The notes under the pieces: model-generated
Told to the model about the DNA's origin: nothing
Seen by the model: the letters and a program-made list of their open reading frames with translations, nothing else
Database searches by the model: none
Part shown: positions 21,070 to 63,888 of the stretch, piece by piece
Numbering within the stretch: the first letter of the stretch is position 1
How the letters are laid out: every line of letters starts with the position of its first letter
Source of the DNA: Nitrospinales bacterium
GTDB taxonomy: Bacteria > Nitrospinota > Nitrospinia > Nitrospinales > VA-1
Reading direction: 5' to 3'
Assembly: GCA_965262115.1 (NCBI GenBank)
Contig: OZ253496.1
Location: 2,496,001-2,560,000 of the forward strand
DNA: 64,000 bases
Program-made: the position numbers and the translations under genes

Positions 21070-21167
21070 CCGGCGAGCCGCCGGTGACCGTGATATTCTT
21101 CCTTAACCTTCGTGAGCCTGTGATATCCCCTTCGCTAAATTCATGCCCGGAACGGGTAGAACGGGTA
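21069..21167 (+). repeat. ACCGGCGAGCCGCCGGT palindrome followed by a nested pair of GTGAT..GGGTA mini-elements (outer 21089-21118+21159-21167, inner 21119-21158)
   Basis: Direct reading; removing the inner copy restores a 39-bp copy. Confidence 0.85.
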
Positions 21168-21609
21168 AACTGCAATAGCTCACTTCTGCAAGCAAAATTT
21201 ATCTCGGCTTAAAAAGATTTAACCCGGTTCTCTCCTCCCTTCATATGGAGGAGTTGGAGGCGCGTTGCCTTGTCATTCCTCTCTGAAGCCCTCGAAGGAT
21301 TAACCACCGATGCACACAGGGGCTGGGGTGTGATTTATGTCCTGCCAAGCAAGCCCTCGTAAGGTTCATCTGCACGTTTGCCCCGCTATTCCGAAAGCGT
21401 GATAAGATTAAAGTAGTAAACATATCTATGAGAGGCTTATAATTACCAACTTGTAGTCAAGTAGCGACTTGACCCCCTTTATTAAATTTATAGGGAGAAT
21501 GTCATTCGCTACGGTCAAAGCTTTAAAAAGAGTAGAAGGGGAAAAATAGCAAAAAAATAGCTCCAGTTTTTCTATCTTTAATAGACCAGTAAAACTTTGT
21601 GAGGAGCTT

Positions 21610-22074
21610 ATGGTCGATGATGTTGTAATTTGTTCGCATTGTGGAAAGAAGAATCGGATTCCTGAGGAAAGGGATAATATTGGCGCAAAATGTGGTCATT
21701 GCAATTCCTTACTCGATGAAAATTTTTCTGAGATTGAAACTCAGAGATATTCTAGTAAAGCTGTGAGTATTGAGGGAATAATCTCTCTTTTAGCTACCCA
21801 AACAAAAGAAGTCCTTTCCTTGGAGAAGGTAGGGTATAGACTAATTAAAGATCCATATTCCCTTGGTTATATTAAAGCCTTTGCTAACCTCCTCGTTTCT
21901 AAAATTGAAAAAGATGCGTTAAAGCGTCATGAAATCTATGTGCTGGTTCTTAATGAAATCTTTAAAAATCAATCAGAAGATATACGGGAAAGGGCTCATC
22001 TATTAGATAGCTCCAACTTAGATTTTCTGCATGGAAGAACCTTGGGTTGGGAAGAAGCCGCATTACACGTTTGA
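21610..22074 (+). CDS. Hypothetical protein with N-terminal zinc ribbon (TrxC-like CxxC..CxxC), AT-rich
   Basis: CSHCGKKNR...KCGHC; RBS GAGGAG. Confidence 0.65.
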   Translation: MVDDVVICSHCGKKNRIPEERDNIGAKCGHCNSLLDENFSEIETQRYSSKAVSIEGIISLLATQTKEVLSLEKVGYRLIKDPYSLGYIKAFANLLVSKIEKDALKRHEIYVLVLNEIFKNQSEDIRERAHLLDSSNLDFLHGRTLGWEEAALHV

Positions 22075-22395
22075 CTTGAACTACTCTCAAGCTTTAGTGG
22101 AGATTTCTAATTTCTAACGAGAAAACTGTCTACACTTTGTCTACAAGAATTCCACAATAAAGCGGCCATCCAAGTAGGACTAACCGCTTAAAAATTTATA
22201 ATATAGCCAGTTGTGGAAACCTTACCGTAGCAAGATTATTGGGTTTCACGGCCTCGTTATATTCTTCCCAAACTCTCGGGCCCCGAAGCAACTGTGTTAA
22301 ATGTCAAGTGCTGGCAATGAGATTTTCATTCCAGAGTGTTTTTGTTTTGATCATGGTATTGATGATCGTTAATAACTTTCTCATGCATGCGGTAA

Positions 22396-23301
22396 TGAAC
22401 TTCCCCTGTTTTAGTGGACAGTTAGTTAAGAGGCATAGGCCTGTTTCTCGAATTCGGCAGGGCTGAGATAGCCGAGATATTAGTGACGGCGTTGCCGATT
22501 ATAAAACACTTCGATATATTCAAAAATATCCTTCTTTGCTTGCTGACGGGTTTTGTAGTTCCGGTTATGAATGAGTTCCACTTTGAGAGTATGGAAAAAA
22601 CTCTCCGCCACGGCGTTATCCCAGCAATCGCCCTTCCGGCTCATACTGCACTCTATCCCATGAACATTGAGCAAGGCTTGAAAATCGTTGCAGGCATATT
22701 GAACCCCCCGGTCAGAATGGTGAATCAATCCCGGTTTCATGCCGCCGTTCTTCATTGCCATATTTAAAGCTCTCATTACCAACCAACGGGTTATCCAACG
22801 ATCCATGGCCCAACCAATAACTTTACGGTGGAATAAATCCAGCGTCACCGCAAGGTATAACCAGCCCTCTTGAGTCGGGATATAGGTGATATCCGAAACC
22901 CAGCATTGACCGGGCTCAGCAACATTAAACCGCCGTTGCAGTTTGTTTTTTGCCACCGGGTGATTATGTTTGGAATCGGTTGTCACCCTAAACTTTCTTT
23001 TGTGCTTGGCAACGATTCCATGCTCGCGCATAAGACGGGCAATACGATGCCTGCCAATGGCATATCCCTTGTCTTTCAAGTCCTCATGAATTCTGGGACT
23101 GCCATAAGTCTGGCGACTCTTCTTATAAACGGTTTTGATCTCATCAACCCATCGCTGCTTCTCACGGCTCCTCAGGCTCTCGGGGCGGCTCAGCCAGGCA
23201 TAGAACCCACTTCGTCCCACTTCCAGAACCCGGCACATCGGGCTTACCGGAAATGCTTCTCGATGATCCCGTATAAACCGATATCTCATTGGGAACCCTT
23301 C
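22396..23301 (-). mobile_element. Truncated IS3-family element: right IR plus orfB; orfA and left end missing
   Basis: IR TGAACTTCCCCTGTTTTAGTGGACA at 22396; orfB motifs [25 protein letters not shown]. Confidence 0.92.
22426..23289 (-). pseudogene. IS3 OrfB transposase with premature stop
   Basis: TAA at 22480 replaces Ser in RRH*YLGYLSPAEFE; natural stop at 22426. Confidence 0.85.
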
Positions 23302-23446
23302 GAGTACCCCTTGTATGTTGTTCATAAGGGGAATTTGTAGTAGTTGTACCTGTGAGCCCTGTGGGAAGCCGGTTTTGTGTTTTCCACAAGGCTCACAGGT
23401 ACAACTACTACAAATTCCCCTTATGAACAACATACAAGGGGTACTC
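23302..23446. repeat. Long inverted repeat with 57-bp perfect arms
   Basis: 23302-23358 is the exact reverse complement of 23390-23446; imperfect inner stem. Confidence 0.95.
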
Positions 23447-23595
23447 ATGCCGGAAACCGCACCTTGTGGGACGGGAGGCAAGCCTACTCTTGACTGCAAA
23501 TTAGCGGTGATCCAGATCGGTTTGGTTTTTGGAGTCGAAAAAAAATCCAACCCTCCCCAACCCCCTCCCTATGAAGGGAGGGGATATAAAAGTAT

Positions 23596-23633
23596 TACCC
23601 CTGTGGGGCCGAGGGATTGGGAAGAATATCACG
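23596..23633 (-). repeat. GTGAT..GGGTA mini-element (38 bp)
   Basis: TACCCCTGTGGGGCCGAGGGATTGGGAAGAATATCACG. Confidence 0.75.
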
Positions 23634-23692
23634 TGTGCTTGATGGCGTTGTTTGCTTCACGGGCAATGCAATACCGGCCCCACGCCTAGTGG

Positions 23693-23935
23693 TTAGACTT
23701 TGATGATGCCGCTGTCTTCATCATAAAAGAAGGTGTCACCGTCTGGTCCGCGGTAGTTAATTTCCTTAACTTCCCAGATTTGTTTCATTTTGACATCTGC
23801 TTCCGCGGCGTGAAATCGCCCTTTATCTTCCCGCTGCAAAAGGAGAAATTTGTTGTTGTTATTCGAAATAATTTCCCAATAGAAAAAATCACTTTGAACG
23901 GTTCCTTTTTCGTAGTCGATATTGATGATGTTCAT
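23693..23935 (-). CDS. Hypothetical protein (80 aa)
   Basis: ORF directly after ctpA, RBS AAAGG. Confidence 0.6.
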   Translation of the reverse strand: MNIINIDYEKGTVQSDFFYWEIISNNNNKFLLLQREDKGRFHAAEADVKMKQIWEVKEINYRGPDGDTFFYDEDSGIIKV

Positions 23936-23965
23936 TTCTGCAACCTTTTAAATCTTAATGTTTGA

Positions 23966-25522
23966 CTAATAGTTAATATTGGCGGCAATTTCACGGGCTT
24001 TTTCCATAGACCGCTTTTTGCTGGCAACGGTAGTATTTTTCAAAATACGAAGAGCCAGTTCCACGGTTGAATCGTGTTCCGCGCTCAAAGCAATGTCCTG
24101 ATTTTCAAAAAACTTATTGAGACTGGATACTTTTAAGGTCAGCGAAGATTGTATAGGGCTGGCCTTGTCCGGTTTCTGATCCTCTTCCCCCGCGACATCA
24201 TTGACGATATGAATTTCCGGAATAATACCATGTTTGGTGATGTCGATTCCAGAAGGTGTGTAATATTTTGAAGTGGTGAGGCGTAGCCCCGAACCATCGC
24301 TTAATCTGAAGATGGTTTGCACCGAACCTTTGCCGTAGGAATTTTCACCAATGATCAGGGCCTTTCCTGAATCCCGCAATGCGCCGGCGGCAATTTCTGA
24401 TGCGCTGGCGCTGTACTGATTAATTAGAATCGCAACCGGGACTTGATGCAGACTGTCTTTATATAAGCTGCGGTACTCATGGTAATTGTCTCCCCCTCGG
24501 CCTTGGGTATAAACAACCATTCGTCCCTTGAAAAGGAAATGACTGGCCACTTTTACCGATTGGGTGAGCAGTCCGCCTGGATTTTCACGCAAGTCCAGAA
24601 TGAATCCTTTCACGCTATTTTTTTCAGCTTGTTTCAAACCTGTTTTCAATTGTTTCTCGGTTTGCTTGGAAAAACTACTGATCTTTAAATAACCGATCTG
24701 GTTATCGAGCGTTTTATATTCAACGGTGTTGAGTAAAATGATTTTCCGAGTGAGGGTATAGGTTCGGTTTCTTTTTTCGCTTGGCCGCAAAAGGGTGAGG
24801 GTGACATTGGTTTCAGGGTATCCTCGAAGCAGGTTGGCGAGTTCCTCAATATGTATCCCGGCGATTTCCTTACCGTTCACACTCATGAATAAATCATTGG
24901 CAAGAATTCCAACTCTTTCAGCCGGTGAGTTTGCCATGGTTTTGACCACAAACAGCTTGTTATCTTTCATGGTGATCACCATTCCCAAACCGCCATACTT
25001 TCCTTCTGTTTCGCGCATGGACTTTTTAAAGGAGTCCTTGTTCATAAATTGGGAATAGGTGTCAAGCGAACTCATAATCCCTTCAATCGCTGAGTTTTCC
25101 AGATTTCTCTTGGTAATGGCTTTATTAGACTGGTCGTGGAGAAAATAATAAACTTTCTGGAGTTCGTCCCAATCGTGGCTTTTGTCATAAGTCAGTTTAT
25201 ATTGGATGCCTCGACTCTTATACCTTACGGTATTGATGCCGGGGTTTTTGCTGAGTGTCACCAACTCGGAGTCCGCATTTTTTATCATTCCTTCAATCGC
25301 GGCGGAAAATAGTTTTTTATGGTCAGGAGGGTAGACATATTTTTCTGAAACCAAATCCATGATCTCTTCAAATATTTCCAGATCGCTGTTGAAAAAGCCG
25401 GCATCAGCCGTTCCCTTAAAGCCAGCGGGGCCCAGAATATTGACATGGGGCAAACATAGAAGGGCAAAAACCCCTGCCACCAGGCCCAATGAATATTTTC
25501 TCAAGTTTTTATTCGGGTTCAT
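23966..25522 (-). CDS. ctpA: S41-family carboxyl-terminal processing protease
   Basis: PDZ (GGLG), LDLRENPGGLL, SASASEI, GKGSVQ motifs. Confidence 0.92.
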   Translation of the reverse strand: MNPNKNLRKYSLGLVAGVFALLCLPHVNILGPAGFKGTADAGFFNSDLEIFEEIMDLVSEKYVYPPDHKKLFSAAIEGMIKNADSELVTLSKNPGINTVRYKSRGIQYKLTYDKSHDWDELQKVYYFLHDQSNKAITKRNLENSAIEGIMSSLDTYSQFMNKDSFKKSMRETEGKYGGLGMVITMKDNKLFVVKTMANSPAERVGILANDLFMSVNGKEIAGIHIEELANLLRGYPETNVTLTLLRPSEKRNRTYTLTRKIILLNTVEYKTLDNQIGYLKISSFSKQTEKQLKTGLKQAEKNSVKGFILDLRENPGGLLTQSVKVASHFLFKGRMVVYTQGRGGDNYHEYRSLYKDSLHQVPVAILINQYSASASEIAAGALRDSGKALIIGENSYGKGSVQTIFRLSDGSGLRLTTSKYYTPSGIDITKHGIIPEIHIVNDVAGEEDQKPDKASPIQSSLTLKVSSLNKFFENQDIALSAEHDSTVELALRILKNTTVASKKRSMEKAREIAANINY

Positions 25523-25573
25523 TTTTAGATTTTTAGAGCAGGGGTAAAATTGTGCGCGTAGATGGCCTGAAAA

Positions 25574-26200
25574 TTAGCCATTGTTTTTCAAAATGTCTGC
25601 GAAAATTATTTCCAGATTGTCGGTCATCTCATCGGTGCTTCCATTGGTCATGCTGGGCGCCACTTTCAGGACATTGTTAATGATAACTGTTGGCGTTTCA
25701 TTGGCCTTGACCTGCTTGGCCAGTTCCAGCGAACGATCTGTTTTAGCCTTGATAGAAGCTGACTGCATGCCTTCGGCCATCTCTTTACCTATCTTAAAAT
25801 CACGGGCCAGAAACCTGATAACTTTAGGTTGGAAAATATCAATACCCAATTTAAAACTGGTGTCAAATAATTCCTGAGTGAATTCTTCTTCGAGCCCCAG
25901 TTCGTCGGCAATATAAAATGCCATGGCTGGGTAAGCCGTTTGGTCGCCCCAGTAAATGGGAAACTTTTTATGATGAAGCTTGTCCTTGAACTTGGAGCGC
26001 AGGCGTTTGGAGGTTTCCAGGAACCGGTAGCAATGTCCGCAAGAATAATTGAAGAATTCAGCCATCTCGATCATTTTAACATTTTTGAGCTTGCTGATGT
26101 CACCGATCACTTCATACTTGCCGTGAATTTTTTCATCAGCCTGAGCCCATCCGGGTAAAAAGAAAAAAATGGCCAGTAAAATGGCGGAAACCTTTTTCAT
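25574..26200 (-). CDS. DsbA-like thiol:disulfide oxidoreductase
   Basis: EFFNYSCGHC, TP motif, signal peptide. Confidence 0.85.
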   Translation of the reverse strand: MKKVSAILLAIFFFLPGWAQADEKIHGKYEVIGDISKLKNVKMIEMAEFFNYSCGHCYRFLETSKRLRSKFKDKLHHKKFPIYWGDQTAYPAMAFYIADELGLEEEFTQELFDTSFKLGIDIFQPKVIRFLARDFKIGKEMAEGMQSASIKAKTDRSLELAKQVKANETPTVIINNVLKVAPSMTNGSTDEMTDNLEIIFADILKNNG

Positions 26201-26235
26201 GAACGACTCCTTATATTTTTTAAACGGGTACTCAA

Positions 26236-27552
26236 TTAATGTTTGATTTTTGGCCAATATTTCGCGTAATTAAAACGCGGGCTGTGATTTTTTACGTGGC
26301 ATTGCCTGCACGCTTCTGTGGCCTGGCTCCCAAAGCCCGACTGCGGGGCCGATGCGTGGCCCCGTCCGGGACCGTGGCACACCTCGCATTGGACGTTTTT
26401 CAGGCCAGGTGTATACAGTTCGCTGATAAAGCCTCCTGGAAGGTTGAAGCCGACCACGTGGCAAACCAGGCATTCAGGATCAAACGCCTTGTTGATTTTC
26501 CTTAAAGTGTTATAAGCCCGACCATGATGCGAATCTGACCACACCTTATGTTCTGCAGGATGGCAGGTTTTGCACAAGGTGTCGCCAGCGTAAACGGATT
26601 TATTTCTCTTGTTCCGCTTGCCAGCCAGAGTCTCGAAGAACATGGCTTCGACTTTTTCATTATACTGTTCATATAACTTTACCATTTCGGCATCAAATTT
26701 TACACTTGAATCCAGTTTTACCAGGTTATGACTCAAAGATTTATGGCCTTCAGGATCAATCTGTACCCTCAATTCCCCCATTTTTTGTCCCCGGGACGAG
26801 GACTGAACGAAAAGTTTGCCGTTTTTTCTCACTGGTTTCATATCAATGACATCTGATTCGGTGGCAATATGTCCATTGATCACAATATCGACCCCATCAA
26901 GATCCAGGTAATCCAGCGCGGCCTGCCGTTCGGCATGAGTGAGAAGAACAATGAGATCGGGGTTTTCTATCTCACGCATACGGGTGATCAGATTTAAAGC
27001 TGTCTGCTTTGGGTCTTCAATGTTCAGGCCGACATGACCATAAAACAAGCCGGGATCGGCCACCGCCAGGATGCCCACTCTCAATCCGTTTGGCAGCGAT
27101 TTCACCTTTGACCGGGCGGGCTCAAATTGATCGATCATCAGGTTTCCCGCTATCCAGGGGATGTGCGCTCGATCCTTTAAGAATTTGGAACCGTAAACCA
27201 AGTCCCGATCCCCCAGTGCGACTGCATCGTATTGCATTTTTTCCGTTGCGATGAGAAGCGTTTCGGCTTTCAGTTTTCCCTGGCGTGTGGGTTCTTTAAA
27301 ATGGTCGCCGGTATCGACAAGTAAAAGGTTAGGGTGTCGACTCCGCGTATCTTTGAGGTATTGCATTCGCCGCTCGATGCCGCCCTGGTCTTCCTCCTTG
27401 GCACATCCGCAGGGTTTCAGCTCCGCCAGCAGGTTGCCGGTAAAGATAATTAAAACCTCCCTGGGGTGTGCCGTTGAGGTTGTGCTCTGACTTACTGAAA
27501 GACACCCAACTGCAAATATCAGAATAATCAATATCGTTTGTTTCATGATCAT
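26236..27552 (-). CDS. UshA/metallophosphoesterase-like domain fused to a tetrahaem c554-like cytochrome
   Basis: PCGC, GG..RR, DTGD, GH motifs; four CxxCH (CKTCH, CLVCH, CEVCH, CRQCH). Confidence 0.82.
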   Translation of the reverse strand: MIMKQTILIILIFAVGCLSVSQSTTSTAHPREVLIIFTGNLLAELKPCGCAKEEDQGGIERRMQYLKDTRSRHPNLLLVDTGDHFKEPTRQGKLKAETLLIATEKMQYDAVALGDRDLVYGSKFLKDRAHIPWIAGNLMIDQFEPARSKVKSLPNGLRVGILAVADPGLFYGHVGLNIEDPKQTALNLITRMREIENPDLIVLLTHAERQAALDYLDLDGVDIVINGHIATESDVIDMKPVRKNGKLFVQSSSRGQKMGELRVQIDPEGHKSLSHNLVKLDSSVKFDAEMVKLYEQYNEKVEAMFFETLAGKRNKRNKSVYAGDTLCKTCHPAEHKVWSDSHHGRAYNTLRKINKAFDPECLVCHVVGFNLPGGFISELYTPGLKNVQCEVCHGPGRGHASAPQSGFGSQATEACRQCHVKNHSPRFNYAKYWPKIKH

Positions 27553-27731
27553 TAAGGTATCGGAAATTCCTTTTTAAATCAATCGTGGGAACCAGAACAC
27601 TCGTACTTCACGGGCCAGAAAACCAGTATTTTAGAGGGCAAAAGCGTGTTGGGTTGTCGAGGAAAACTGTATTTAGTTATGAAATCTTCGTAAAACCCGC
27701 TAATATACAAGGAAAACGGGGTGGTTAATCT

Positions 27732-28616
27732 ATGCCAATGCGTAAATCTGAAATTCATATGCACTCCATCTTTTCCGATGGTGAATTTTCGCCTGCAGAT
27801 TTGATTGATATTGCGGAAAAAAATGAGGTGTCCATTCTATCCCTCACCGATCACGATACTTTCGATGGCATTCCTGAATTTCTGCAATCTGCGGGGGAAG
27901 CGGAGATCACTGCTTTTCCCGGCATTGAAATCACAGTCAAGTTTCATGATTTTAATATTCATATGCTGGCTTACTTCAAAGACTATGAATCCATCAAACC
28001 GGAATTCAGGGCTCGTGTGAAAACAATGACCGATACCCGGGAAAAACGTATGCGCCAGTTGATCGAGCGGATCAACGAGGTCATTCCTGAAAGGTTTCAG
28101 GGCGCGATTGAATTTGAGAATGTGAAAAGAGCAGCCGAAGGGGTTCTTGCCCGACCGCATCTCGCACGCGAGATGGTCAGGCTCGGCATTGTGTCGAGTA
28201 CCGGCCAGGCCTTTGAGCGCTATCTGGTGAAGTATAATGTCGAACGGGAAAACCTGGACGCGCCAACCGCCATCAGCATGGTGCGGGAAAGTGGCGGTGT
28301 CCCGGTCCTGGCTCATCCGGGAGAGCGATCCTATTCGCTCATTTGTCCCGAAAAGGGGCGACAACCCGAAAATGCTCCCGTTTTGCTGGAAGAGTTGAAG
28401 CAGATGGGGCTTTTGGGCCTCGAATGCCATTATCCCTATCATGAAAGAATGGGGACAGTGGATTATTTTATCGACATGGCCCATAGTTTCAATTTGATCG
28501 TTACCGGTAGCCGCGACTTTCACGGATTCAACTCACACCAGAAAGTCAATATTTTTGGCACCACCAAAATGGAACCTGTTTTTCTCGAACAGTTCCAGGA
28601 AGTATGGTCCTCCTGA
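27732..28616 (+). CDS. PHP domain-containing protein
   Basis: HMHSIFSDG, TDHD, GIE, AHP, GSRDFHG. Confidence 0.9.
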   Translation: MPMRKSEIHMHSIFSDGEFSPADLIDIAEKNEVSILSLTDHDTFDGIPEFLQSAGEAEITAFPGIEITVKFHDFNIHMLAYFKDYESIKPEFRARVKTMTDTREKRMRQLIERINEVIPERFQGAIEFENVKRAAEGVLARPHLAREMVRLGIVSSTGQAFERYLVKYNVERENLDAPTAISMVRESGGVPVLAHPGERSYSLICPEKGRQPENAPVLLEELKQMGLLGLECHYPYHERMGTVDYFIDMAHSFNLIVTGSRDFHGFNSHQKVNIFGTTKMEPVFLEQFQEVWSS

Positions 28617-28626
28617 AAGTGGGCGA

Positions 28627-29700
28627 CTACGGCAACTGAAAGCTCACCATAATACCGCCCATCACATCATCCAGCACGAAATCTTTTTTCGGACTACCGG
28701 GGTGGCCGTTGTGACAGTTAACACAACTGCGCGTCACAGCGATATCCGGATAAATAGCCTGGAAATATTTTTTCCGACCCACCTTGGAATGCTTGATATA
28801 AGGGCGAATGGGGTGCACCTCTACACTTTCCAGTCCGTTCTGCTCAAACTCGTTGGCAGGCCGGTTTTGCGGATTGATGGGGTAAAGGCTGATCAAACGA
28901 AAGTCCAGTCCCAGTCGTTTGGACTTAATCGCTGCGGCGCTGTTCAATAAGAACTGCGCCGGAAGCATGAGAGCGTTTTCATTTTTCCACTTTTCCTTGG
29001 AATGCAGAATGCCTTGCTCCTCCAACCGGTTGACAACATGCCGGGCATATACTGTGCGGTCTGATTCCAGCACCGAGTGCACATAGTCCGCCACCACTTC
29101 CGGAGCCAGCTGGAACTTTTCATCGACATTTCTTTCTGTCCGCCTGCCCAAAGGCAGGTCAATGATGATTCCCCCCATCACGTCGCCTTTTTTAAAATCT
29201 GTTTTGGGGCTGTTGGGGTGATTGTTGTGGCAGGTGACGCAGGTTTCCGAAACAGCGATGTCCGGGTAGATGGCCTCAAAATACCAACGCCCTTCACGCG
29301 GAACGATCCAGGTGAAAGGCTGGTCCGGATTCTTCACGACTTCTTCCAGTCCGAGTTTTTCGTTTTGCGATCGCGGTGCGTTATGGTTATTGAGGGGCCA
29401 GAGGCTCATCAGCCGGTACTTCATGCCGATCCCGTGCGAGTTAGAAATTTTGGAAGACATCGAAAGAAACTGGGCCGGCAAAAGCAATGTCTTTTCCCGT
29501 TCCCAGTTTTCAGAAGCGTTGAGAGAGTTCTGCCGGGATAAATGTCCAACCACCTGCTTGGAGTAAGTGGTCCGTCCGGCTTCCACCACCGCGTGGATGA
29601 AGTCGGCCGCCAGTCCGGCGAGGATTCTCTGCTCCTGACTTTGAGCCGGGGAGGGGATAAACAGGAAGAACAGAGCGATACAGAACGCGAAAGATTTCAT
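28627..29700 (-). CDS. Tandem DUF3365 (Tll0287-like) c-type haem protein
   Basis: Two internal repeats, each with LPAQFL and CxxCH...DVMGGI. Confidence 0.82.
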   Translation of the reverse strand: MKSFAFCIALFFLFIPSPAQSQEQRILAGLAADFIHAVVEAGRTTYSKQVVGHLSRQNSLNASENWEREKTLLLPAQFLSMSSKISNSHGIGMKYRLMSLWPLNNHNAPRSQNEKLGLEEVVKNPDQPFTWIVPREGRWYFEAIYPDIAVSETCVTCHNNHPNSPKTDFKKGDVMGGIIIDLPLGRRTERNVDEKFQLAPEVVADYVHSVLESDRTVYARHVVNRLEEQGILHSKEKWKNENALMLPAQFLLNSAAAIKSKRLGLDFRLISLYPINPQNRPANEFEQNGLESVEVHPIRPYIKHSKVGRKKYFQAIYPDIAVTRSCVNCHNGHPGSPKKDFVLDDVMGGIMVSFQLP

Positions 29701-29793
29701 GGGCCTACCTCCCTAAAAGGTGCGCTTACCGTAAATATAGGTTCCAAAAGGTTAAAACTCAATACCGTCCAGATGGGGAGAGAATAGGGTTTT

Positions 29794-29871
29794 CTATTTC
29801 CACATGGCATAGAGTGTGAGTGCCGCCATCATGGCGCCCATAATTATTCGAATCCAGATGTCTGTGTTCAT
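29794..29871 (-). CDS. Putative 25-aa single-helix membrane peptide
   Basis: MNTDIWIRIIMGAMMAALTLYAMWK with AAGGGG RBS; own translation. Confidence 0.45.
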   Translation of the reverse strand: MNTDIWIRIIMGAMMAALTLYAMWK

Positions 29872-29890
29872 TAGTCACGCCCCTTGGCAG

Positions 29891-30097
29891 GAGAGCTTTG
29901 CATAACCTGAGATTACCCTTTCAGGGCACGAAAGTTTTGGTGAAATATCACGTCTTCATCGCGTACGCTCTTCAGAATGACAAAATAGCTCTTTATTGTC
30001 ATGCCGAGCTAGTGATATTTGACCTTTGAATTCTTGCCCTGTAGGGGTATCTCGAAGCATCTCGCTTTTTTGATTTTTCGACTTACGCAAAGGTCTC
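29891..30097 (-). mobile_element. MITE (GAGACCTTTGC.. TIRs) carrying two inserted 39-bp mini-elements (29914-29952, 30011-30049)
   Basis: Colinear with the reverse complement of 46234-46361 once the two inserts are removed; flanks CCTTGGCAG and CTTAGGCAG look like a decayed 9-bp TSD. Confidence 0.88.
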
Positions 30098-30185
30098 CTT
30101 AGGCAGGGGAGACAGATAGTAAGGTTTTGACGCCGAGACAACTTTTTTCCAGTCCATGAACGCTATTTACCTCTGCGGGGTACGC

Positions 30186-31601: not shown

Positions 31602-31764
31602 GTTTCAATTCTCTGTTTTATAAGGAGAAATGAGATTAACCGATCAGGACAGGTAATTCAAGTCCCACTCGGCGTGGGGCCAGCGTGCAATAACTTTTGT
31701 TTTCTGGCAAACAGTGTTGGCGGCAAAACAAAGACATTGCTAGTTACCAGCGGAGGTACTCCGC

Positions 31765-32006
31765 CTAGTGGCTGAGGAATTTTTTCAGGGTTTTATCGCA
31801 AATTTTTTTACCTTCGATTTCGAGATGTCGAGCACCTGGGAAATTTCCGCCGAGGTCAGTTCTTCATGGCAGTGCAAGGCCACCACCAGTCTTTCCTGTT
31901 CATTGAGCATGTCAATGGCCTCGGCAATTTCCGCCTTCCAGCTTGCCCGGTCTTCGGGCGATAGGGGCATTTCTTTGGCCTTTGTCAAAATCGCGGTCTC
32001 GTTCAT
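31765..32006 (-). pseudogene. Stand-alone FliA-like sigma region-4 protein, frameshifted in an A7 run
   Basis: AEAIDMLNEQERLVVALHCHEELTSAEISQVLDISKSKV; one extra A gives KKICDKTLKKFLSH* ending at 31765. Confidence 0.65.
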
Positions 32007-41972: not shown

Positions 41973-42068
41973 CCTTGACTGTATCTGGCTAGAAAAGAGT
42001 TATCTCGGCTTAAATTGAGCAAGTGTTCGTCGAGGACGTTTGCCTGCAATCGAGAGCCATTGCAAGTT

Positions 42069-42108
42069 TACCTCGTTGGGGCACGAAATTGATGTTGAAG
42101 ATATCACG
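42069..42108 (-). repeat. GTGAT..GGGTA mini-element (40 bp)
   Basis: TACCTCGTTGGGGCACGAAATTGATGTTGAAGATATCACG. Confidence 0.8.
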
Positions 42109-46096: not shown

Positions 46097-46413
46097 CCGG
46101 CGAGCCGCCGGTGGCAGTGTGATAGCTCGTTGAGCCGAGGGTATCGTTCTAGCTATCGTGATATTTGTAATATCCCCAACATTAGCCTTCATGCCCGGCA
46201 CGGGTACTTCCCAAGCTTTTACCCTTTCAGGGCGAGACCTTTGCATAAGTCGAAAAATCGAAGAATCGAGATGCTTCGACAAGCTCAGCATGACGATACT
46301 GGGCCATTTTGTCATTCTGAGGAACAAGGTGACGAAGAATCTCGACTTATGCAAAGCTCTCTTTCAGGGCATGAAGGCAAATAAAGAAATATCACACGTG
46401 CTCCGCAGGGGTA
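46096..46413. repeat. Composite repeat: palindrome 46096-46112, outer mini-element 46157-46413 containing inner copies 46166-46206 and 46220-46396
   Basis: Removing the inserts gives CGTGATATTCTTCCCAAGCTTTCGTGCTCCGCAGGGGTA (39 bp). Confidence 0.85.
46234..46361 (+). mobile_element. 128-bp MITE with 20-bp TIRs and 9-bp TSD
   Basis: TIRs GAGACCTTTGCATAAGTCGA and TCGACTTATGCAAAGCTCTC (19/20 match); TTTCAGGGC duplicated at 46225-46233 and 46362-46370. Confidence 0.92.
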
Positions 46414-46554: not shown

Positions 46555-47295
46555 ATGAGTGTTTCCCCAAAACTTCAACTTCAGCAACTGATCCTTTTGC
46601 AGAACCTGGATGATGAGATTGGTGGGCATAAAAAACTACTCGCTGAAATTCCTGTTCAGTTAGATGCTGGTCGCGCGGAACTGGAAGATATAAAGAAAAT
46701 CCTTTCAATTGCTAAAGAAGAAATAGACACATTACAAAAAAATCGTAAGGCTATTGAGTCGGAGGTTCAGGGCGAAAATGACCATATGGCGAAAGCCAAG
46801 ACGAAACTAACAGCGGTAAAAACCAACAAGGAATACACCGCTATTCTTGCCGAGGTCGATGCGATTAAGGTAAAGGTTGCCGGGCTGGAAGATAAAGAAC
46901 TGGAAATCATGGAAGCCCTTGAAGAAAAGCAAAAGGAGATTCCGGGAGTCGAAAAAAATTTCAAGGAAGAGGACGCCCGCTTCCAGGAATACAAAACAAA
47001 AAAAGATGGTGAATTGAGCAGGATGAAGCAAGAGTTGGATGTCTTTATCGCCAAGCGTGAGACGCTAATGGAGCAGGTTGATAAAGTGTTAGTGCAACGC
47101 TATGAAAAAGTTGCGAAATCCCGCGAGGGCAGGGCGGTCGCCTTGTTGCAGGAAAATATTTGCCAGGGATGTTTCCAGCAGATTCTACCGCAGATGGTGA
47201 TAGACGTTAAAGTCGGTGAAAAAATCCAGCAATGCTCAAACTGCTTGAGTTTTTTATATTGGGAAGAAATTCCAGAAGCCGCAACGCCGAAGTAA
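46555..47295 (+). CDS. C4-type zinc ribbon coiled-coil protein (DUF164)
   Basis: L..LQNLD start, long coiled coil, CQGC..CSNC. Confidence 0.88.
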   Translation: MSVSPKLQLQQLILLQNLDDEIGGHKKLLAEIPVQLDAGRAELEDIKKILSIAKEEIDTLQKNRKAIESEVQGENDHMAKAKTKLTAVKTNKEYTAILAEVDAIKVKVAGLEDKELEIMEALEEKQKEIPGVEKNFKEEDARFQEYKTKKDGELSRMKQELDVFIAKRETLMEQVDKVLVQRYEKVAKSREGRAVALLQENICQGCFQQILPQMVIDVKVGEKIQQCSNCLSFLYWEEIPEAATPK

Positions 47296-47661
47296 ACCGG
47301 GTGATCGCTGTTTCGGCTTTATGGCCGGGAGAGAGGAAAGTCCGGGCTCCACAGGGCAGGATACTCCGTAACGCGGAGTGAGGGCGACCTTAAGGAAAGT
47401 GCCACAGAAAATACACGGCCTACCCGGCTCATGTCGGCGGCAAAGGTGAAAAGGCGAGGTAAGAGCTCACCAGTACCGTTGGTGACAGCGGTAGCTTGGT
47501 AAACCCTATCCGGAGCAAGATCAAATAGGAAAGTGCTTGAGGGCGGCCCGTCCGATACTTTCGGGTTGATTGCTTGAGCCTGCTGGCAACAGCAGGCCTA
47601 GATTAATGGTCACCACTTCATGCTTCATGAAGTACAAAACCCGGCTTATGGTTTACTTCGG
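47287..47661 (+). ncRNA. rnpB: RNase P RNA (class A)
   Basis: GAGGAAAGTCCGGGCTCC, AGTGCCACAGAAA, ACAAAACCCGGCTTA; P1 helix CCGAAGTAAACC/GGTTTACTTCGG. Confidence 0.97.
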
Positions 47662-48022
47662 CTACCCGGCCTGCTAGGCGCAGGGCCAAAATACAATAGC
47701 TTTTGTTTGCTGGCAAAGAGTTGTCTCGGCTTGAAGAGCAGTTGCTGTTTGTCTGTCCTGTGTTGTGCTACGTCACTTGCCTCCATGCCTAGAGGCTGGA
47801 GTCTCGTCATGTGGCTCCGAATTTGGGGTCTGGGAGTGCCACGCTGTGCAGGGCGTTGACGAGCAACACCATTATTGCCAGCAGGGTGATCGGTAGAATG
47901 TAATGGGAAACAGGTGGTCGGCGTAGCTGCTGGGGGCAAATAGCCATGACTTTCTATGCGTTCCCGTGTGCCCTACAGCTTGCAATAATATTTATGCCAC
48001 GAAGTGTGCTATAAAAGTCATA

Positions 48023-54042: not shown

Positions 54043-57464
<3,422 letters not shown>

Positions 57465-57474
57465 GTCAAACCCT

Positions 57475-58788
57475 TCAGCGGACAGCGGATGAGTGGACTC
57501 GTCGGCGGATTGGCCGTTTCGCGGGTCTTCGACCGTCAGGTTTCCTGGCTCTCGGAGGGGGACCGCGCCGCTTTCGTATCGGAGGCTTGCCTTCCTTTTC
57601 TTCCAGAAACAATTCCTCTTCGGGCCAGGATACGGGGATTTTGTTTTTCAGGTAATCCTCGACCCGTTCCAAATGCTGGGCGAAATCTTCACAGCAAAGT
57701 GTGATGGCGGTGCCCTTGTTTCCTGCTCGTGCGGTTCTGCCTATGCGATGCACATAGTCTTCCGCGTCCTGCGGTAAATCATAATTAATGACATGCGTGA
57801 TATTGTCGATATGCAGTCCTCGCGATGCCACGTCCGTGGCGATGAGGATATCGAGAGCACCTTCCTGAAATTTTTCCAGTACCCGAATTCGGGCCTTCTG
57901 GTGAAGGTCGCCGCTAATTTGTCCGGCGTTAAAGCCGTTGTGGTTCAATTTCCACTCAAGAATCTCGCATTCAATTTTAGTGTTGGAAAAAATCAGAACT
58001 TTTTCCCCGGCCTCTTTTTTCATCAAACCTAAAAGGAGGTTGAATTTTTCATGTTGTCCGACGTGATAGAGTATCTGGGTGACCTCGTCCACCACCGCTT
58101 TTTCCGGCTCGATGGCTACCCTGACCGGATTGTTCATGTGCTCGTAACACAACTCCATAACCCGGTGATTGAGCGTTGCCGAAAATAGCATGGACTGGCG
58201 CTTGTCATAGGGCGAACAGTTGCGGAATAAATAACGCAGGTCGGCAATGAATCCCATATCAAACATGCGGTCGGCTTCGTCCACGACCAGAACTTCCACC
58301 TGTTTCAAACTGAAGAATTTTTGCTTGTAGAAATCGATCAACCGGCCCGGTGTGGCGATCAGGATGTCCACCCCATCCTTGATCTGGTTTATCTGTTTGT
58401 CATAATCCACTCCGCCGATAACACAAACCGTGCGGAACGAGCAATGCTTGCCTAAGAGTAGGGCATCCTTTTCGATTTGCCTTGCCAGTTCGCGGGTCGG
58501 AGCGATGATCAATGCTCGTGGACCGGCTTTTCCTTTAGGCGCGAGTGGTGGAGTGTTTTCTAACAGCCGGGTGAACAGGGTGATCAAAAACGCCGCGGTT
58601 TTTCCCGTTCCGGTCTGTGCTTGCCCTGCCAGGTCCTTGCGCCCAAGAGTGATGGGCAGAGACTTGCTCTGGATCGGTGTGCAGGTTACAAATTTCGCGT
58701 CGCGAATGCCCTTTAAGACTAGTTCTGGCAAGGCCAGAGATTCAAAGGTCAGTAGTTCCAAAAGATGCTCCGGGTGGGCACTTCTCAC
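57475..58788 (-). CDS. DEAD-box RNA helicase (RhlB-like)
   Basis: AQTGTGKT, DEADRMFD, SAT, HRIGRTAR; start position uncertain. Confidence 0.93.
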   Translation of the reverse strand: MRSAHPEHLLELLTFESLALPELVLKGIRDAKFVTCTPIQSKSLPITLGRKDLAGQAQTGTGKTAAFLITLFTRLLENTPPLAPKGKAGPRALIIAPTRELARQIEKDALLLGKHCSFRTVCVIGGVDYDKQINQIKDGVDILIATPGRLIDFYKQKFFSLKQVEVLVVDEADRMFDMGFIADLRYLFRNCSPYDKRQSMLFSATLNHRVMELCYEHMNNPVRVAIEPEKAVVDEVTQILYHVGQHEKFNLLLGLMKKEAGEKVLIFSNTKIECEILEWKLNHNGFNAGQISGDLHQKARIRVLEKFQEGALDILIATDVASRGLHIDNITHVINYDLPQDAEDYVHRIGRTARAGNKGTAITLCCEDFAQHLERVEDYLKNKIPVSWPEEELFLEEKEGKPPIRKRRGPPPRARKPDGRRPAKRPIRRRVHSSAVR

Positions 58789-59159
58789 AGGGACTCTTGA
58801 GAGTTAGAGCCTTAATTTTCAAGTGGTTAAAAATCTTTGTTGAAGATAAAGGTCATTATGAGGGGCTTACCCTTGATTTGCAACTCAAATTTCATTTTTC
58901 TTGACTTTGGAGGGGGGGAAATGTTTAAATTATCCTTCAATTTTGATTCCGGTAGTTACCCAGATTCTAGGCCCGCCTGCACTTGATTTCAAAGAATTTT
59001 CCCTTTGATTTTCAATGGTTTTTGTTTCAGAAGCGGGACGAACCGGAAAATTGGAATAAGGCCGGAAAGTGGGGCAATTGTTATCGTTTTTTATCCGGCC
59101 TTTACCGGATAGGCTCGTTTTAGATGAACCACGGGTTTTTCGCGTTTTGAGGTGAATTT

Positions 59160-60872
59160 GTGATTCAACATGATGTGCTGATTGTGGGTGCCGGTCTCGC
59201 CGGGATGCGTTGTGCCCTGGAAGCCTGTAAGGAGTTGGATGTTGCCGTGTTGACCAAGGTGTATCCTTCCAGATCCCATTCCGGTGCGGCGCAGGGGGGT
59301 ATTGCCGCTTCTTTGGGAAACTCGGAGCCGGACAGTTGGGAAGAGCATATGTACGACACCGTCAAAGGTGGCGACTTTCTCAGCGACCAGGATGCGGTGG
59401 AAGAGTATGTCAAAGCCGCTCCCAGGATTATCTATGAATTAGAGCATATGGGTTGTGTTTTCAGCCGTACGCCGGATGGGAAAATTGCCCAGCGCAGTTT
59501 CGGTGGGCATTCCAAACCGCGCGCCTGTTTTTCTGCCGACCGCACCGGCCATGCCATTCTACATGCCCTGCATGAACAACTCATGAAGAATGCGAAATCC
59601 GTTAAAATTTATAGCGAGTGGTACATGCACTCGCTGGTTGTTGATGGCGATCGTCGTTGTAACGGTGTGGTGGTCAGCAATATCCAGACCGGGGAAGTGG
59701 AAGTGATTCAGGCCAAGGCCGTGGTATTTTGTACCGGGGGATATGGCAGGGTATACAAATTCACTTCCAATGCTTTTGCCAGTACGGCCGATGGAGTCAT
59801 GGCCGCGTTCGATGTAGGGATTCCCCTGGAAGATTTGGAATTTGTCCAATTTCATCCATCGGGTTTGTATCGCCAAGGAATTTTATTTTCTGAAGCAGCG
59901 CGGGGAGAAGGAGCTTATCTCCTTAATGGAAAAGGCGAACGCTTCATGGAACAGTATGCCCCGTCGCGCATGGAACTGGCCCCCCGCGACATCGTAGCTC
60001 GGGCCGAGCAGAGCGAAATGGATGCCGGGCGTGGTGTGAACGGTGAAAACTGTATTCATCTTGACCTGCGCCATTTGGGTGAGGCGCGGATCATGGAACG
60101 TCTGCCGCAAATCAGGCAACTGGGTATCGACTTTTTGGGTGTAGACTGCATCAACGAATGTTTGCCCATTCAGCCTACTGCGCATTATTCGATGGGTGGT
60201 ATCCCGACCGATAAATATTCTCACGTAATTCTTGATGAAAAAGGCACCCGCATGAACGGATTTTTTGCCGCCGGGGAATGCGCCTGTGTCTCCGTTCATG
60301 GTGGTAACCGGCTGGGTACAAATTCCCTTCTGGAAGCAACGGTGTTTGGAGAACGTGCGGGTAAATCCGTACTCGAATATGCCGTGGGCATTGACTACGG
60401 AAACGTCAACGAAGGGCAGGAAAAAGCCCGGGTCCTGAAAAAGTTTGAGGATATTTTTCAAAGAGATGGCTCGGAAAGCTATAACGACATCCGTAATGAG
60501 ATGAAGGATATAATGATGAGCCATTGCGGGGTTTTTCGCGATGAGAAAAAACTCAAAGTCTGTATTGAAACCTTGAAAGGACTGCAGGAAAGGTTCAAAA
60601 ACGGTAGAGTGACCGATAAGGGCAAGCTGTTCAATACAGAAATTTATGAAATTCTGGAATTGGGAAACATGCTAGGGATTTCCCGGCTGATCGCCAATGG
60701 TGCCCTGCAAAGAAAGGAAAGCCGGGGCGGACATTTCCGCACGGATTTTCCGAAACGCGATGACGAAAATTTTCTCCATCATTCAATGACCTACGACTCC
60801 CCAGATGGACTGGTGGTGAAAAAGAAATCGGTCGTGATCACCAAATATCAACCCGCAGAAAGAACTTATTAA
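59160..60872 (+). CDS. sdhA: Succinate dehydrogenase/fumarate reductase flavoprotein
   Basis: [10 protein letters not shown] covalent-FAD motif, QFHP, HYSMGG, RLGTNSL. Confidence 0.95.
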
Positions 60873-61813
60873 TGGCGACTTTCAGGATCAAGCGCTTCAA
60901 TCCGGAAAAACAACCAGAACCTTATTTTGAGGACTTCCAACTGGACATCCAACCGGGGATTACCCTTCTGGATTGCATGAACCAGATCAAGTGGACATTG
61001 GATGGAAGTTTTACTTACCGGATGTCCTGCCGCAGTGCCATTTGCGGGTCCTGCGCCGTTAAAGCGAACGGTCACGCCCTGCTGGCTTGCCAACGTCAGG
61101 CCGAACACATTGTCGATAACGACGAGACCATTACGCTAGAACCTTTGGGCAATATGAAGCCGATCAAAGACCTGGTGGTCGACTTCACCCCGTTCTGGGA
61201 CAAGGTCAACAAGGTCAAACCTTATCTGGAACCCAAAGAAGCCCCGCCGGAAAAAGAACGTCCCCAAAGTCAGGAAGAATTTTTGAGGATCGACGATTCA
61301 AGCACCTGCATCATGTGCGGGGCCTGCTATTCCGACTGCAATACCCTCGAGGTGGATGAGAACTTCCTCGGGCCGGCGGCTCTTGCCAAGGCGCAAAGAT
61401 TTGTTGGCGATTCCCGTGACTCCCAAACCTTCGAGCGGGTTAAAGAACTCAGCGAACCGGGCGGCATCTGGGACTGCACCCACTGCGGCGAATGTGTCGA
61501 GCGTTGCCCCAAACCGGCGCGTCCGTTTGACCGCATCAAAGAAATCATGACCGTGGCCCTGGAGCAAGGTGTGCACAACAATAACGGAGCCCGGCACGCA
61601 CTATCCTTTTTTAATTCCGTAAAAAGAAGCGGTAATCTGAATGAGAACAGGATTCCCGTTGAGTCGATGGGATTTTTCAATATTTCCGGATTGTTGAGCC
61701 TGCTTCCTGTCGGGTTGCGCATGTTCTTTAAGGGCAAGGTTCCCCCGATCATTCATCACTCCATTGATGAAGTGGACGATGTTAAACGAATTTTCAAGGA
61801 GTTGGATCAATGA
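60872..61813 (+). CDS. sdhB: Succinate dehydrogenase iron-sulfur subunit (type E, extended)
   Basis: [33 protein letters not shown]. Confidence 0.95.
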
Positions 61814-62688
61814 AGTTTGCCTTGTTTACCGGATGTGTTGCCAAAGGGGCAACCCGGGAACTGATGCTTTCCACCACCAAAGCCGCCGAAGGCCTCGGGT
61901 TTGAATTCATAGAAATGAAAAGCGCTTCCTGCTGTGGTGCCGGGGTGGTTTCCGAAAAAAGCCCTCTGCTTGCCGATGCGCTGAACGCGCGTTCGTTTTC
62001 CATCGCCGAAAAACAAGGGCTCGATATCGTCACCATCTGTTCGACCTGCCAGGGCACCTTGAAAAAAACTGAAGCTCAGCTCAATGCAGATGCCGAATAT
62101 AAAAAGAAGGTCAACGACATCCTCGAGGAGGGTGGGCACCAATATAGCGGCAAGACACGGATCAAACATTTCGCCAACATTCTCGCTACTGATGAAGGCA
62201 TGGCGAGGTTGAAGGAACGCATCAAAAGACCCCTGACCGGGTTAAAGGTTGCTGCGTTTTATGGTTGTTATGTCCTGCGTCCTTCAGAAAACTCAGACTT
62301 TGAGAATCCGGATAATCCCACAGGTATGGAAGATATTTTTGCAGCACTGGGCGCAACACCGGTTTATTATCCCAGTCGCATCAAGTGTTGCGGGTTTCCC
62401 ATTGTTATGATGAACAAACCGGCTTCTCTTGATATGTCGGGCAACGCCCTGCTGGAGGCGATCGATCACGGCGCCGATGTTGTGGCGACCGGATGTCCGC
62501 TTTGTCATTTGAGCCTCGATTCTTATCAGCCGGAAATTGAAATTTTGCAAAAGAAAAACAATTCCATCCCCGTTCTGCACCTTCCCCAACTGGTTGCACT
62601 GGCCTTGGACTATTCCCCCAGCGAACTCGGCATGGATAGACACATCGTCTCCACCCTCAAAATCAACCAGATCCTCGCTACCACTTAG
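61810..62688 (+). CDS. sdhE: CCG-domain (HdrB-like) SDH anchor subunit
   Basis: Two CCG domains (GC..CCG..CxxC); follows sdhB. Confidence 0.88.
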
Positions 62689-62689
62689 T

Positions 62690-62810
62690 CCCGGCGAACC
62701 GCCGGTGGCCGTGATATTCTTCCAAAGCTCTCCGGAGTACTCGTGTCGGTGTTATGTCAAAACTTTAACCTTCATGCCCCGAAGGGGTATGTGATAATTC
62801 ACCTTAACTA
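62690..62810 (+). repeat. Palindrome plus mini-element cluster (partial 62710-62739, full 62750-62789, partial from 62790)
   Basis: CCCGGCGAACCGCCGGTGGC then CGTGATATTCTTCC..., TGTTATG..TTCATGCCCCGAAGGGGTA|TGTGATA. Confidence 0.8.
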
Positions 62811-62895
62811 TTAAAAAATTTTCTTCATACAAAATGGCACGATGAACCAAAAATGGTTGTAAAGTAAGATAGAGGTAAGAAAATTAAGAATCAGT

Positions 62896-63624
62896 GTGAG
62901 CGATGAACCCGCTGAAATAATACTCTTAAAAATAAAAACTTTAAATAAAGTGGCGAACCGGGAACATATTACACTGCTCAGGAGTTCAGTAGAGAGGTGG
63001 AACATTTGGAGAAAAAGCAATCCAAACATCGAGCCCGATCTGGATCGCGTCGACTTCAATGGCGCTAACCTGAGCAATGCCAACCTCAGAAAAGCTAATT
63101 TCTATATGACCCTACTCAACGGCGCCAATTTGCAGGGCGCGAACCTCACCAAAACCTTCTTCGCCGGTTCGGATTTGCGAGGCGCCAACCTCAACGAAAC
63201 CGATTGCCCGGGAGTGAAGTTCAATGGTGCGGATTTATGCGGATGCTCCTTCAAGAAAGCGAAACTGAGAAAAGTAGATTTCAGTGACCGCGATCTTCGC
63301 GACGTCGACTTCAGTGAAGCCGACCTGAGAAGAGCCGATCTACGAAAGTCTAATCTTGAAAAAGTAAACTTCTTCAAAGCCGATCTTCGTAAGACCTTGC
63401 TCACTGAAGCCAATCTCACAGAGGCGTATCTGTCTTCGGCGTGGTTGCAGGAGACCGACTTACAATGGGCCAACCTCAGCAAGGCTATCTTGCGTTATTC
63501 CGTTAACCTGACCCCCGCCCAGGTCCAATCGGCGAAGATGGACCGCGAAACCAAAGTTCCCCACTACCTGAAGATCCACTGGATTTCTGAAACGGATTTC
63601 CGCTGCGAAAAAAAGACAGGGTAG
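62896..63624 (+). CDS. Pentapeptide repeat protein
   Basis: WNxWR..P.I.PDL leader followed by A[ND]Lxx repeats. Confidence 0.9.
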   Translation: MSDEPAEIILLKIKTLNKVANREHITLLRSSVERWNIWRKSNPNIEPDLDRVDFNGANLSNANLRKANFYMTLLNGANLQGANLTKTFFAGSDLRGANLNETDCPGVKFNGADLCGCSFKKAKLRKVDFSDRDLRDVDFSEADLRRADLRKSNLEKVNFFKADLRKTLLTEANLTEAYLSSAWLQETDLQWANLSKAILRYSVNLTPAQVQSAKMDRETKVPHYLKIHWISETDFRCEKKTG

Positions 63625-63849
63625 AGAATCTGATGCCGCGACCGCTTTCTTTAACTTCCCTTTGCTAAACCTTAGTCAATAGTTCAGAGTTGCTACCCAG
63701 CAAAAACTGCGGGACATTTGCGGGACTTTTCAAACTAACTCAAGCTTATTCTCAATATGCTGGTGCTTCTTTAAGGTATTAAGAACTAGGTAGGTTATCA
63801 GATAAGCCGCCCAATCATGAGCGGTTAAAGACGCGGGGTTCGCTGGCCT

Positions 63850-63888
63850 CGTAATATTCTTCCTAAACTCTCGTGCCACGGAGGGGTG
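63850..63888 (+). repeat. GTGAT..GGGTA mini-element (39 bp, diverged)
   Basis: CGTAATATTCTTCCTAAACTCTCGTGCCACGGAGGGGTG. Confidence 0.75.

Follow-up and report, generated by a model that had tools for sequence, protein, structure and literature searches.

Copies of the element in the window

The window analysed here, a stretch of 64,000 nucleotides from a Nitrospinales bacterium (contig OZ253496.1; C1:2496001-2560000 of the source genome, G000, a single contig of 2.68 Mb that is 94% complete), carries dispersed copies of an element of 39-41 nucleotides (nt) with the consensus N-GT(G/T/A)AT-(pyrimidine-rich, 15-17 nt)-TC-N'-TGCCC-x-GNA-x-GGGTA. N denotes the first base of the element and N' the base directly before its 3' hairpin, and a copy is said to pair when N:N' is a Watson-Crick pair. 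The element is a non-autonomous mobile DNA of marine Nitrospina-type bacteria, where its precisely inserted copies number in the hundreds. A preliminary description of the window had listed 14 copies and had reported perfect covariation between N and N'; all 14 are present with the bases it gave, and 14 of 14 pair once nested inserts are removed. Four of them (647, 21089, 46157 and 46220) are hosts split by later insertions and were rebuilt by excising these, and three (647, 677 and 748) fall outside the range that the description set for itself (21089..63888). A fifteenth copy, of the C:G type and interrupted by an IS110 remnant, pairs as well. The copies, together with a carrier resembling a miniature inverted-repeat transposable element (MITE), are as follows.

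647..726, minus strand: C:G copy, host split by the copy at 677-717
677..717, minus strand: T:A copy, nested after GTGATATT of its host
748..788, minus strand: T:A copy
21089..21167, plus strand: C:G copy, host with its hairpin interrupted by 21119-21158
21119..21158, plus strand: T:A copy, nested
22255..22288, plus strand: 5' part of the fifteenth copy (C:G); the IS110 right end starts at 22289
23437..23443, plus strand: 3' end of the fifteenth copy, AGGGGTA, behind the IS110 left end
23596..23633, minus strand: C:G copy of 38 nt, its hairpin short by one base
29891..30097, strand not assigned: MITE-like carrier with inverted ends GAGA(G/C)CTTTGC, which amplifies the copies inside it
29914..29952, minus strand: C:G copy within the carrier 29891..30097
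30011..30049, plus strand: A:T copy within the carrier 29891..30097; its site class has 27+9 clonal genome copies
42069..42108, minus strand: C:G copy, hairpin degenerate
46157..46413, plus strand: C:G copy, host interrupted twice (46166-46206 and 46220-46396)
46166..46206, plus strand: T:A copy, nested
46220..46396, minus strand: T:A copy, antisense in its host, split by a MITE at 46234-46361 (9-bp duplication)
62750..62789, plus strand: T:A copy; the truncated start of a further copy follows head-to-tail
63850..63888, plus strand: C:G copy

The element is found in 20 of the 22 other genomes of the genus, with up to 369 strict matches per genome, and in 0 of 18 searched genomes of other genera. 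It is extragenic and of high copy number: just 17 of 331 copies in G000 lie inside open reading frames (ORFs) of at least 150 amino acids (aa), although such ORFs span 75% of the genome. Copy density drops with distance from the origin placed by GC skew (Spearman -0.62, p=7e-4, 26 bins), and orientation relative to the upstream gene is unbiased (99 same, 119 opposite). No Rfam family matches at the element sites, the sole Rfam match in the window being an RNase P class A RNA (47289-47663, +). Four matches were obtained in viral contigs, three of them resembling real copies within phage or prophage DNA, and no adjacent enzyme was recognised beside these copies; contigs L144-L146, which each hold one Watson-Crick copy, might carry the element from one host to another. 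As a kind, tiny mobile repeats for which no enzyme is known are familiar from REP (repetitive extragenic palindromic) singlets and CGTC repeats. For these, as for small dispersed repeats (SDRs), it has long been asked how sequences below 50 nt can move with exact ends when they bring no enzyme with them. Apparently new here is the end-to-end pair, and the literature searched appears to contain no description of this element or of such a pair in such a repeat.

Covariation of the two ends

With a profile that left N and N' unscored, 331 copies above 18 bits were found in G000, 303 of which pair; on a locally shuffled version of the genome the same profile gave no match above 10 bits. A strict pattern blind to N and N' returned 201 complementary copies out of 216, and 12 of 14 hosts reconstructed by recursive excision pair. 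The relationship extends to the related genome G013 (120 of 131 copies in 800 kb of its 2.86 Mb) and to loci from a genome scan (142 of 163) and from metagenomes (100 of 147), these two sets of loci containing a few chance matches from other taxa and the genome-scan loci possibly overlapping the G013 stretches. The covariation is thus perfect within the window and imperfect beyond it. The genome-collection pattern excluded N'=T, and A:T is therefore undercounted in that sample; 6 non-Nitrospina loci were dropped before the states were counted, and 12 loci presumed to be chance matches before the target, complementarity and site-class tests described below.

In mutual information computed over 386 unique sequences, N-N' ranks second among all position pairs, behind the loop-closing pair of the hairpin. 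All four Watson-Crick states of N:N' exist (T:A, C:G, A:T and G:C); A:T recurs in six further loci whose middles differ, and three sites have G:C. Compensatory changes, which had been ascribed to the stem in general, are real at the loop-closing pair (C:G 178, G:C 79 and T:A 16 of 301) and at no other stem pair, the remainder being fixed in sequence. Similarly, in the stem extension that had been proposed to arise when the ends are joined, N:N' covaries, but the adjoining G+1:C pair is near-invariant (273 of 301), shows single changes only and gives no evidence from covariation. The loops are mostly GNA triloops as described, with G in 283 and A in 295 of 301.

Could the pattern descend from two or three clonal subfamilies whose founders happened to be complementary? 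Clonal amplification is certainly visible: most A:T copies of G000 go back to a single insertion that a MITE has multiplied, larger carriers bear many of the copies, and pair type correlates with middle length. However, the pairing survives when copies are collapsed to insertion-site clusters in G000 (93 of 103; C/G 2x2 table 29, 6, 1, 67; Fisher p=1e-18) or to site classes over all data, from Nitrospinaceae (149 of 176), and among non-tandem classes 127 of 152 pair, against a permutation mean of 69 and maximum of 89. Furthermore, 13 of 335 distinct middles occur with more than one N/N' state and 5 of these with two Watson-Crick states, including C:G versus G:C twice. Because there are four pair types, and identical middles with two types, a few clonal subfamilies do not explain the pattern, which is also replicated in G013 and includes the scattered A:T and G:C loci noted above. 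This explanation, which the preliminary description had itself raised for the case that double changes were lacking, is largely refuted, even if independent double changes cannot be counted firmly, given recombination and the shortness of the sequences.

Insertion sites and tandem arrays

The ends of the element are fixed, N belongs to the element, and insertion causes no target duplication. Empty sites fit this arrangement in 35 of the 40 G000 clusters for which a match was available (of 103) and in 38 of 45 matched sites (of 153) from relatives. An arrangement in which N is a target base or a 1-bp duplication was rejected, as it fits 0 of 40 and 1 of 45 empty-site matches, and among 152 non-tandem site classes the base next to the right end is identical to N in 35. 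In a filled/empty comparison with G013, 125 of 131 sites had no unique anchors, the others being 2 shared sites, 1 exact empty site and 3 of other kinds.

Most insertions lie in other intergenic repeats or in the element itself. Frequent hosts include small palindromic repeat families unrelated to the element (CCGGCG-AGC-CGCCGG, CCACTAGGCG and GAGTTATCTCGGCTTAA). Over 113 non-self site classes there is a preference for G at -5 (75), a purine at -3 (83), a base other than A at -2 (109) and A or T at +2 (91), which corresponds to a weak motif G-N-R-B-N|. Head-to-tail tandems are accounted for by the GGGTA end of the element, which fits this motif. The target base is not chosen through N', the first right-flank base being complementary to N' in 28 of 152 non-tandem classes (permutation mean 31.5). 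Two further candidates for target choice were rejected: the variable middle shows neither fixed-register nor register-free complementarity to the flanks above permutation, and a shared target fold around the cut gave no positional signal in 91 sites.

Where tandem neighbours differ in N (many rows share a carrier and are not independent), the pair within the copy is retained by 29 of 35 upstream and by 34 of 35 downstream members, clonal rows included, and the pair across the junction is complementary in only 6 of 35. The constraint therefore lies within one copy: the N:N' pair is intramolecular and does not pick the target. As the junction GGGTA|NGTGAT already occurs in such chromosomal tandems, the read search for it that had been suggested is not diagnostic. 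No circularly permuted single copy was seen among the junction motifs; any circle must therefore reopen exactly at A|N, which calls for a site-specific enzyme. Among orphan 3' ends, to which that list is confined, there was likewise no sign of a longer, autonomous element sharing these ends.

Predicted fold and proposed route of movement

The element has a single hairpin, on one strand, with a G-N-A loop, and its 5' part lacks a second covarying stem. Three-base G-N-A loops with all four bases at N are reportedly a signature of DNA mini-hairpins, so that their occurrence here favours single-stranded DNA of the top strand. With DNA parameters, the mean predicted probability of the N:N' pair over 87 site representatives (top strand) is 0.02 in the linear element and 0.10 with flanks, compared with 0.73 in a circle and 0.82 in the joined junction; the bottom strand gives 0.54-0.63.

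These results are best accommodated by an IS608-like, peel-and-paste route, to which we give an even chance of being correct. The top strand would leave as single-stranded DNA, and its 5' end (N and G) would fold onto C-N' at the foot of the 3' hairpin, bringing the two ends together at a nick in a helix. The A|N junction would then be sealed into a circle of ~40 nt, the agent being either a strand-transfer enzyme of the peel-and-paste type or a ligase that acts on the self-made splint, and the circle would reopen at exactly A|N as the strand passes seamlessly into a single-stranded target. The end-joined intermediate anticipated in the preliminary description gains indirect support from the pairing of N with the N' of its own copy, from the prediction of the pair in circle and junction rather than in the linear strand, and from the four states. 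The analogy drawn there with the guides of IS608 and RAYT was partly right: bases at the hairpin foot do pair with an end, but N' does not choose the target, the paired base lies 3' of the cut, and no Y1 or RAYT gene was found in G000.

A version that dispenses with a known transposase, in which the host NAD-dependent ligase seals the nicked dumbbell into a minicircle and a host or unrecognised nuclease opens and inserts it, appears rather improbable. In favour of the main route stand published data on ligases. In PMC11352879, T4 ligase circularises linear single-stranded DNAs with a 3' hairpin of at least 3 bp and 2-4 bp at the 5' side without a splint; the short series has a GAA loop, a 39-mer is included, and a small loop is best placed 3' of the nick. 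With its 3' hairpin, two 5' pairs, the same polarity and 39 nt, the predicted fold of the element resembles these self-splinting substrates. E. coli LigA, according to passages of PMC4797296, is strict on a nick's 3' side and tolerant on its 5' side, adenylylation proceeding at 5.4 versus 6.8 per s with 5' C:A and slowing to 0.7 with 5' T:G; tolerance of 5' C:A together with strictness 3' of the nick is given for bacterial NAD-dependent ligases more generally (PMC4797296, PMC4737175, in part). In the element, the 3'-side pair is near-invariant (T:A, 287 of 301), and among 398 unique sequences C.A (52) outnumbers T.G (5), a combination that is compatible with the selectivity of LigA. However, Tth ligase also seals T:G readily in the passages of PMC4797296/PMC4737175, and the overall LigA rates for C:A and T:G, as computed from the same part of PMC4797296, are only ~two-fold apart, for which reasons the match is a lead and not proof. 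It is further weakened because C.A is G.T on the opposite strand and some of the class may come from tandem recombination. The window contains an NAD-dependent DNA ligase gene (55443-57464, +), an ordinary housekeeping gene.

Weighing the proposed route

Several results weigh against the peel-and-paste route set out above, the enzyme being the foremost. No cognate mobilising enzyme was found in G000. In G000, 94% complete, no Y1 transposase (PF01797) exceeds the cut-off, and no match was obtained for YagK-type HUH proteins (PF11726) or for Y2 transposases (PF04986), the last search being confined to this genome. RAYT (NF047646) has no match in G000, G013 and G007, and searches of G013, the genome with most copies, returned neither Y1 nor RAYT. 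IS200/IS605 insertion sequences are biased to the lagging-strand template, and the element shows no such bias, 170 of 331 copies and 42 of 103 site clusters being on the leading strand (origin from GC skew). No circle or excision product was observed in assembled contigs, which cannot show rare circles; only two pairs covary, the rest of the stem being fixed; and in some lineages, as the metagenome loci illustrate, covariation is far from perfect. Of 52 unique pairs of tandem neighbours with different middles, as in the array at C1:814897-815055, 27 have hairpins of identical sequence (permutation mean 8.7, maximum 18; partly clonal), which points to homology-dependent steps outside the model.

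The C.A exception, N=C with N'=A, also counts against the route. This class makes up 52 of the 73 mismatched unique sequences among 398 (T.G 5, A.A 5, G.A 3), is rare in G000 and occurs mainly outside it, for example in the metagenome and genome-scan loci L048, L173 and L207. Of 28 copies that have entered another copy in antisense orientation at GGGCAYG|AA, 23 belong to it, and it goes together with a G in front of the element (11 of 18 versus 23 of 133 site classes, p=2e-4), an association that the model does not explain; read from the other strand, it is a G.T. Certain cases are copies that lie upstream in a tandem and were apparently converted by the downstream copy, and the remainder cannot be explained by the model.

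The enzyme search extended further. Y1 genes occur in 7-8 relatives, none flanked by the element and one in a genome without an intact copy, and 8 of 23 genus genomes match NF047646, all below the cut-off, the inspected flanks being free of intact copies. G000 has no match to serine recombinases (PF00239) and no intact reverse transcriptase gene (PF00078), only a broken fragment; three intact tyrosine recombinases and three cas1 genes are present, and the one CRISPR array found by a simple scan has no spacer derived from the element. A scan of 3023 ORFs for HUH motifs yielded no convincing candidate by eye, and no cognate gene was recognised among 21 ORFs with copies on both sides or among ORFs beside copies in the genome-scan and metagenome loci.

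That a resident IS110 bridge recombinase, Ssn-type GIY-YIG nuclease or IS3 transposase moves the element is very improbable, in spite of conspicuous associations. The IS621-like IS110 (316 aa, from a 24-member protein family; its upstream non-coding DNA is ~240 nt long) accounts for 26 right ends in G000, 24 of which lie in the hairpin of the element by the strict pattern (for example at C1:120523, 658371 and 2115285; window remnants at 22289-22304 and 23312-23436). Its upstream region matches both halves of the hairpin target, with predicted target and donor guides, and by comparison with the IS621 system, as set out in passages of PMC11208160, it probably encodes a natural bridge RNA apparently programmed against the element. 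The CT core, however, lies inside the hairpin on the antisense strand, away from the ends; the IS110 parasitises the element, as IS621 does REPs, targeting rather than moving it. IS110 occurs in just 5 of 22 relatives (in G013 and G019 as short open frames, of 123 and 154 aa) and IS3 in 6, compared with 20 for the element. Ssn-like genes are more widespread (14 of 22 genus relatives and G000, the latter at C1:2573200-2573535; relatives' loci L324-L351), and the element is often inserted within Ssn-type repeats; but CGTC/TGTC repeats of their own border these genes and act as hosts, and the genes are also present in genera without the element. The small Ssn-like GIY-YIG genes form at least four subfamilies in Nitrospinaceae, each with its own CGTC/TGTC repeat type.

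Three other explanations keep the pair and change its role. In one, N:N' is a guide-type contact that positions the 5' cut while the ends are held on protein, and the strand is transferred in linear form with no covalent circle; this we regard as unlikely but worth serious consideration. The same pair can form by fold-back of a linear strand, no permuted copies or circles were seen, and IS608 and REP select cut sites with bases 5' of the hairpin foot (PMC3597680 and PMC8266576). Unaided, however, the linear strand is predicted to form the pair only rarely, known guides pair 5' of the cut and thereby choose the target, which N' does not, and the variable middle lacks complementarity to the flanks. 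Alternatively, the covariation might be written mechanically, one base serving as template for the other, or as the reference for its correction, while the folded strand is copied or repaired, with the pair a by-product. Double transversions on identical middles (C:G/G:C, T:A/A:T) would arise more easily through a single templated step than through two mutations, signs of conversion between neighbours in tandems can be seen, and C.A is on the bottom strand a G.T, a common polymerase error. On the other hand, plausible single-change intermediates (A.A, C.A and T.G) are present, no intact reverse transcriptase was found in G000, and such templating would still require juxtaposed ends; we accord it only a small chance. 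Movement through an RNA copy, by a retro- or reverse-splicing-type process with the pair forming in RNA, is more doubtful still and has hardly any probability: although a G.T(U) pair is conserved in the stem (287 of 301) and C.A would be G.U on the antisense strand, the G-N-A loops with all four N read as a DNA mini-hairpin signature, G000 holds only the broken reverse transcriptase fragment, and there is neither gene-orientation bias nor an Rfam match at the sites.

Comparison with known systems

As regards its behaviour, the element most resembles the IS200/IS605 family, and most likely it works like IS608 peel-and-paste without belonging to that family. In passages of PMC3597680, IS608 has exact ends, no target duplication, a hairpin on one specific strand, bases at its 5' foot that pair with an end, and a proposed right-end/left-end junction; it has two hairpins with linkers of 19 and 10 nt, in contrast to the single hairpin of the element, which is flush with the 3' end. 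In the element, furthermore, the paired base is its own and lies 3' of the cut, there is no fixed target tetranucleotide, TnpA was not found, replichore bias is lacking, and the total size is 40 nt.

REP/REPIN sequences with RAYT are likewise hundreds of short extragenic hairpin repeats that are lineage-restricted, clustered with other repeats and targeted by IS621-like IS110s (PMC8266576, PMC3116915 and PMC3733652, in part). Unlike them, the element has no GTAG (or GTGG) tag, its hairpin foot being T-T-C-N', and no RAYT gene was found in G000; a REPIN is an inverted doublet, the element one asymmetric copy that has exact ends and whose two ends covary. It differs from IS91/ISCR and Helitron elements in that G000 has no Y2 match, and from an IS110 donor in having ends N and A with clean empty sites and no shared core dinucleotide. 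CGTC-tagged repeats with Ssn, as far as the passages of PMC11893778 and PMC3733652 describe them, are also hairpin repeats of single-stranded DNA in the same intergenic clusters, but they are hosts of the element and flank their own nuclease genes, a tag and position that the element lacks. The substrates of splint-free circularisation (3' hairpin, 2 bp at the 5' end, ~39 nt and the same polarity) are synthetic and were joined by T4 ligase in vitro, and PMC11352879 is silent on excision or insertion in cells.

A further possible likeness is to the SDRs of Nostoc punctiforme (very small, mobile and self-nested). These cyanobacterial repeats, associated with Elhai et al. 2008, are reportedly 21-27 nt long, mobile and nested in their own copies, and are said to keep their structure by compensatory changes and to have no known enzyme.

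One end-to-end base pair in four Watson-Crick forms provides a structure for the intermediate and a cheap test of the mechanism, and the junction stem-loop is a defined bait for the missing enzyme. If that enzyme inserts a 40-nt single strand seamlessly with a loose target preference, it would offer a new tool chemistry. If instead the self-splinting host-ligase reading were true, there would be a mobility route without a dedicated HUH enzyme, used by ~40-nt DNAs that carry their own ligation splint. We know of no circular mobile DNA smaller than a ~40-nt self-splinting circle, should such a circle be real. The element also shapes the genomes of these nitrite oxidisers, as a landing site for IS110.

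Other features of the window and the source genome

The MITE-like carriers (29891-30097 and 46234-46361) have ~9-bp duplications and are composed of CGTC-type repeats. In contigs assembled from four runs, the MITE at 29871-30097 is missing from one relative's contig, and no joint of element size is among the contig joints listed, which cover the window outside 45-64 kb. An IS3-family transposase region (22480-23550, -) is nested with the IS110 ends, and seven other IS3 copies, with broken frames, each contain one identical element copy. The palindromic host repeats unrelated to the element lie at the following window positions.

21070-21084: unrelated palindromic host repeat
23683-23692: unrelated palindromic host repeat
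31665-31771: unrelated palindromic host repeat
41988-42014: unrelated palindromic host repeat

Elsewhere in G000, the AT-rich stretch C1:1-100000 (38-44% GC) is free of element copies and contains a 73-bp tandem repeat and the broken reverse transcriptase fragment, which looks eukaryotic and non-LTR-like; the stretch is possibly host DNA in the assembly. The window encodes several LRR/TPR repeat proteins (3514-4158, 19859-21069), which, with the three cas1 genes of the genome (C1:768805, 2126375 and 2643996), would be in keeping with a symbiont lifestyle.

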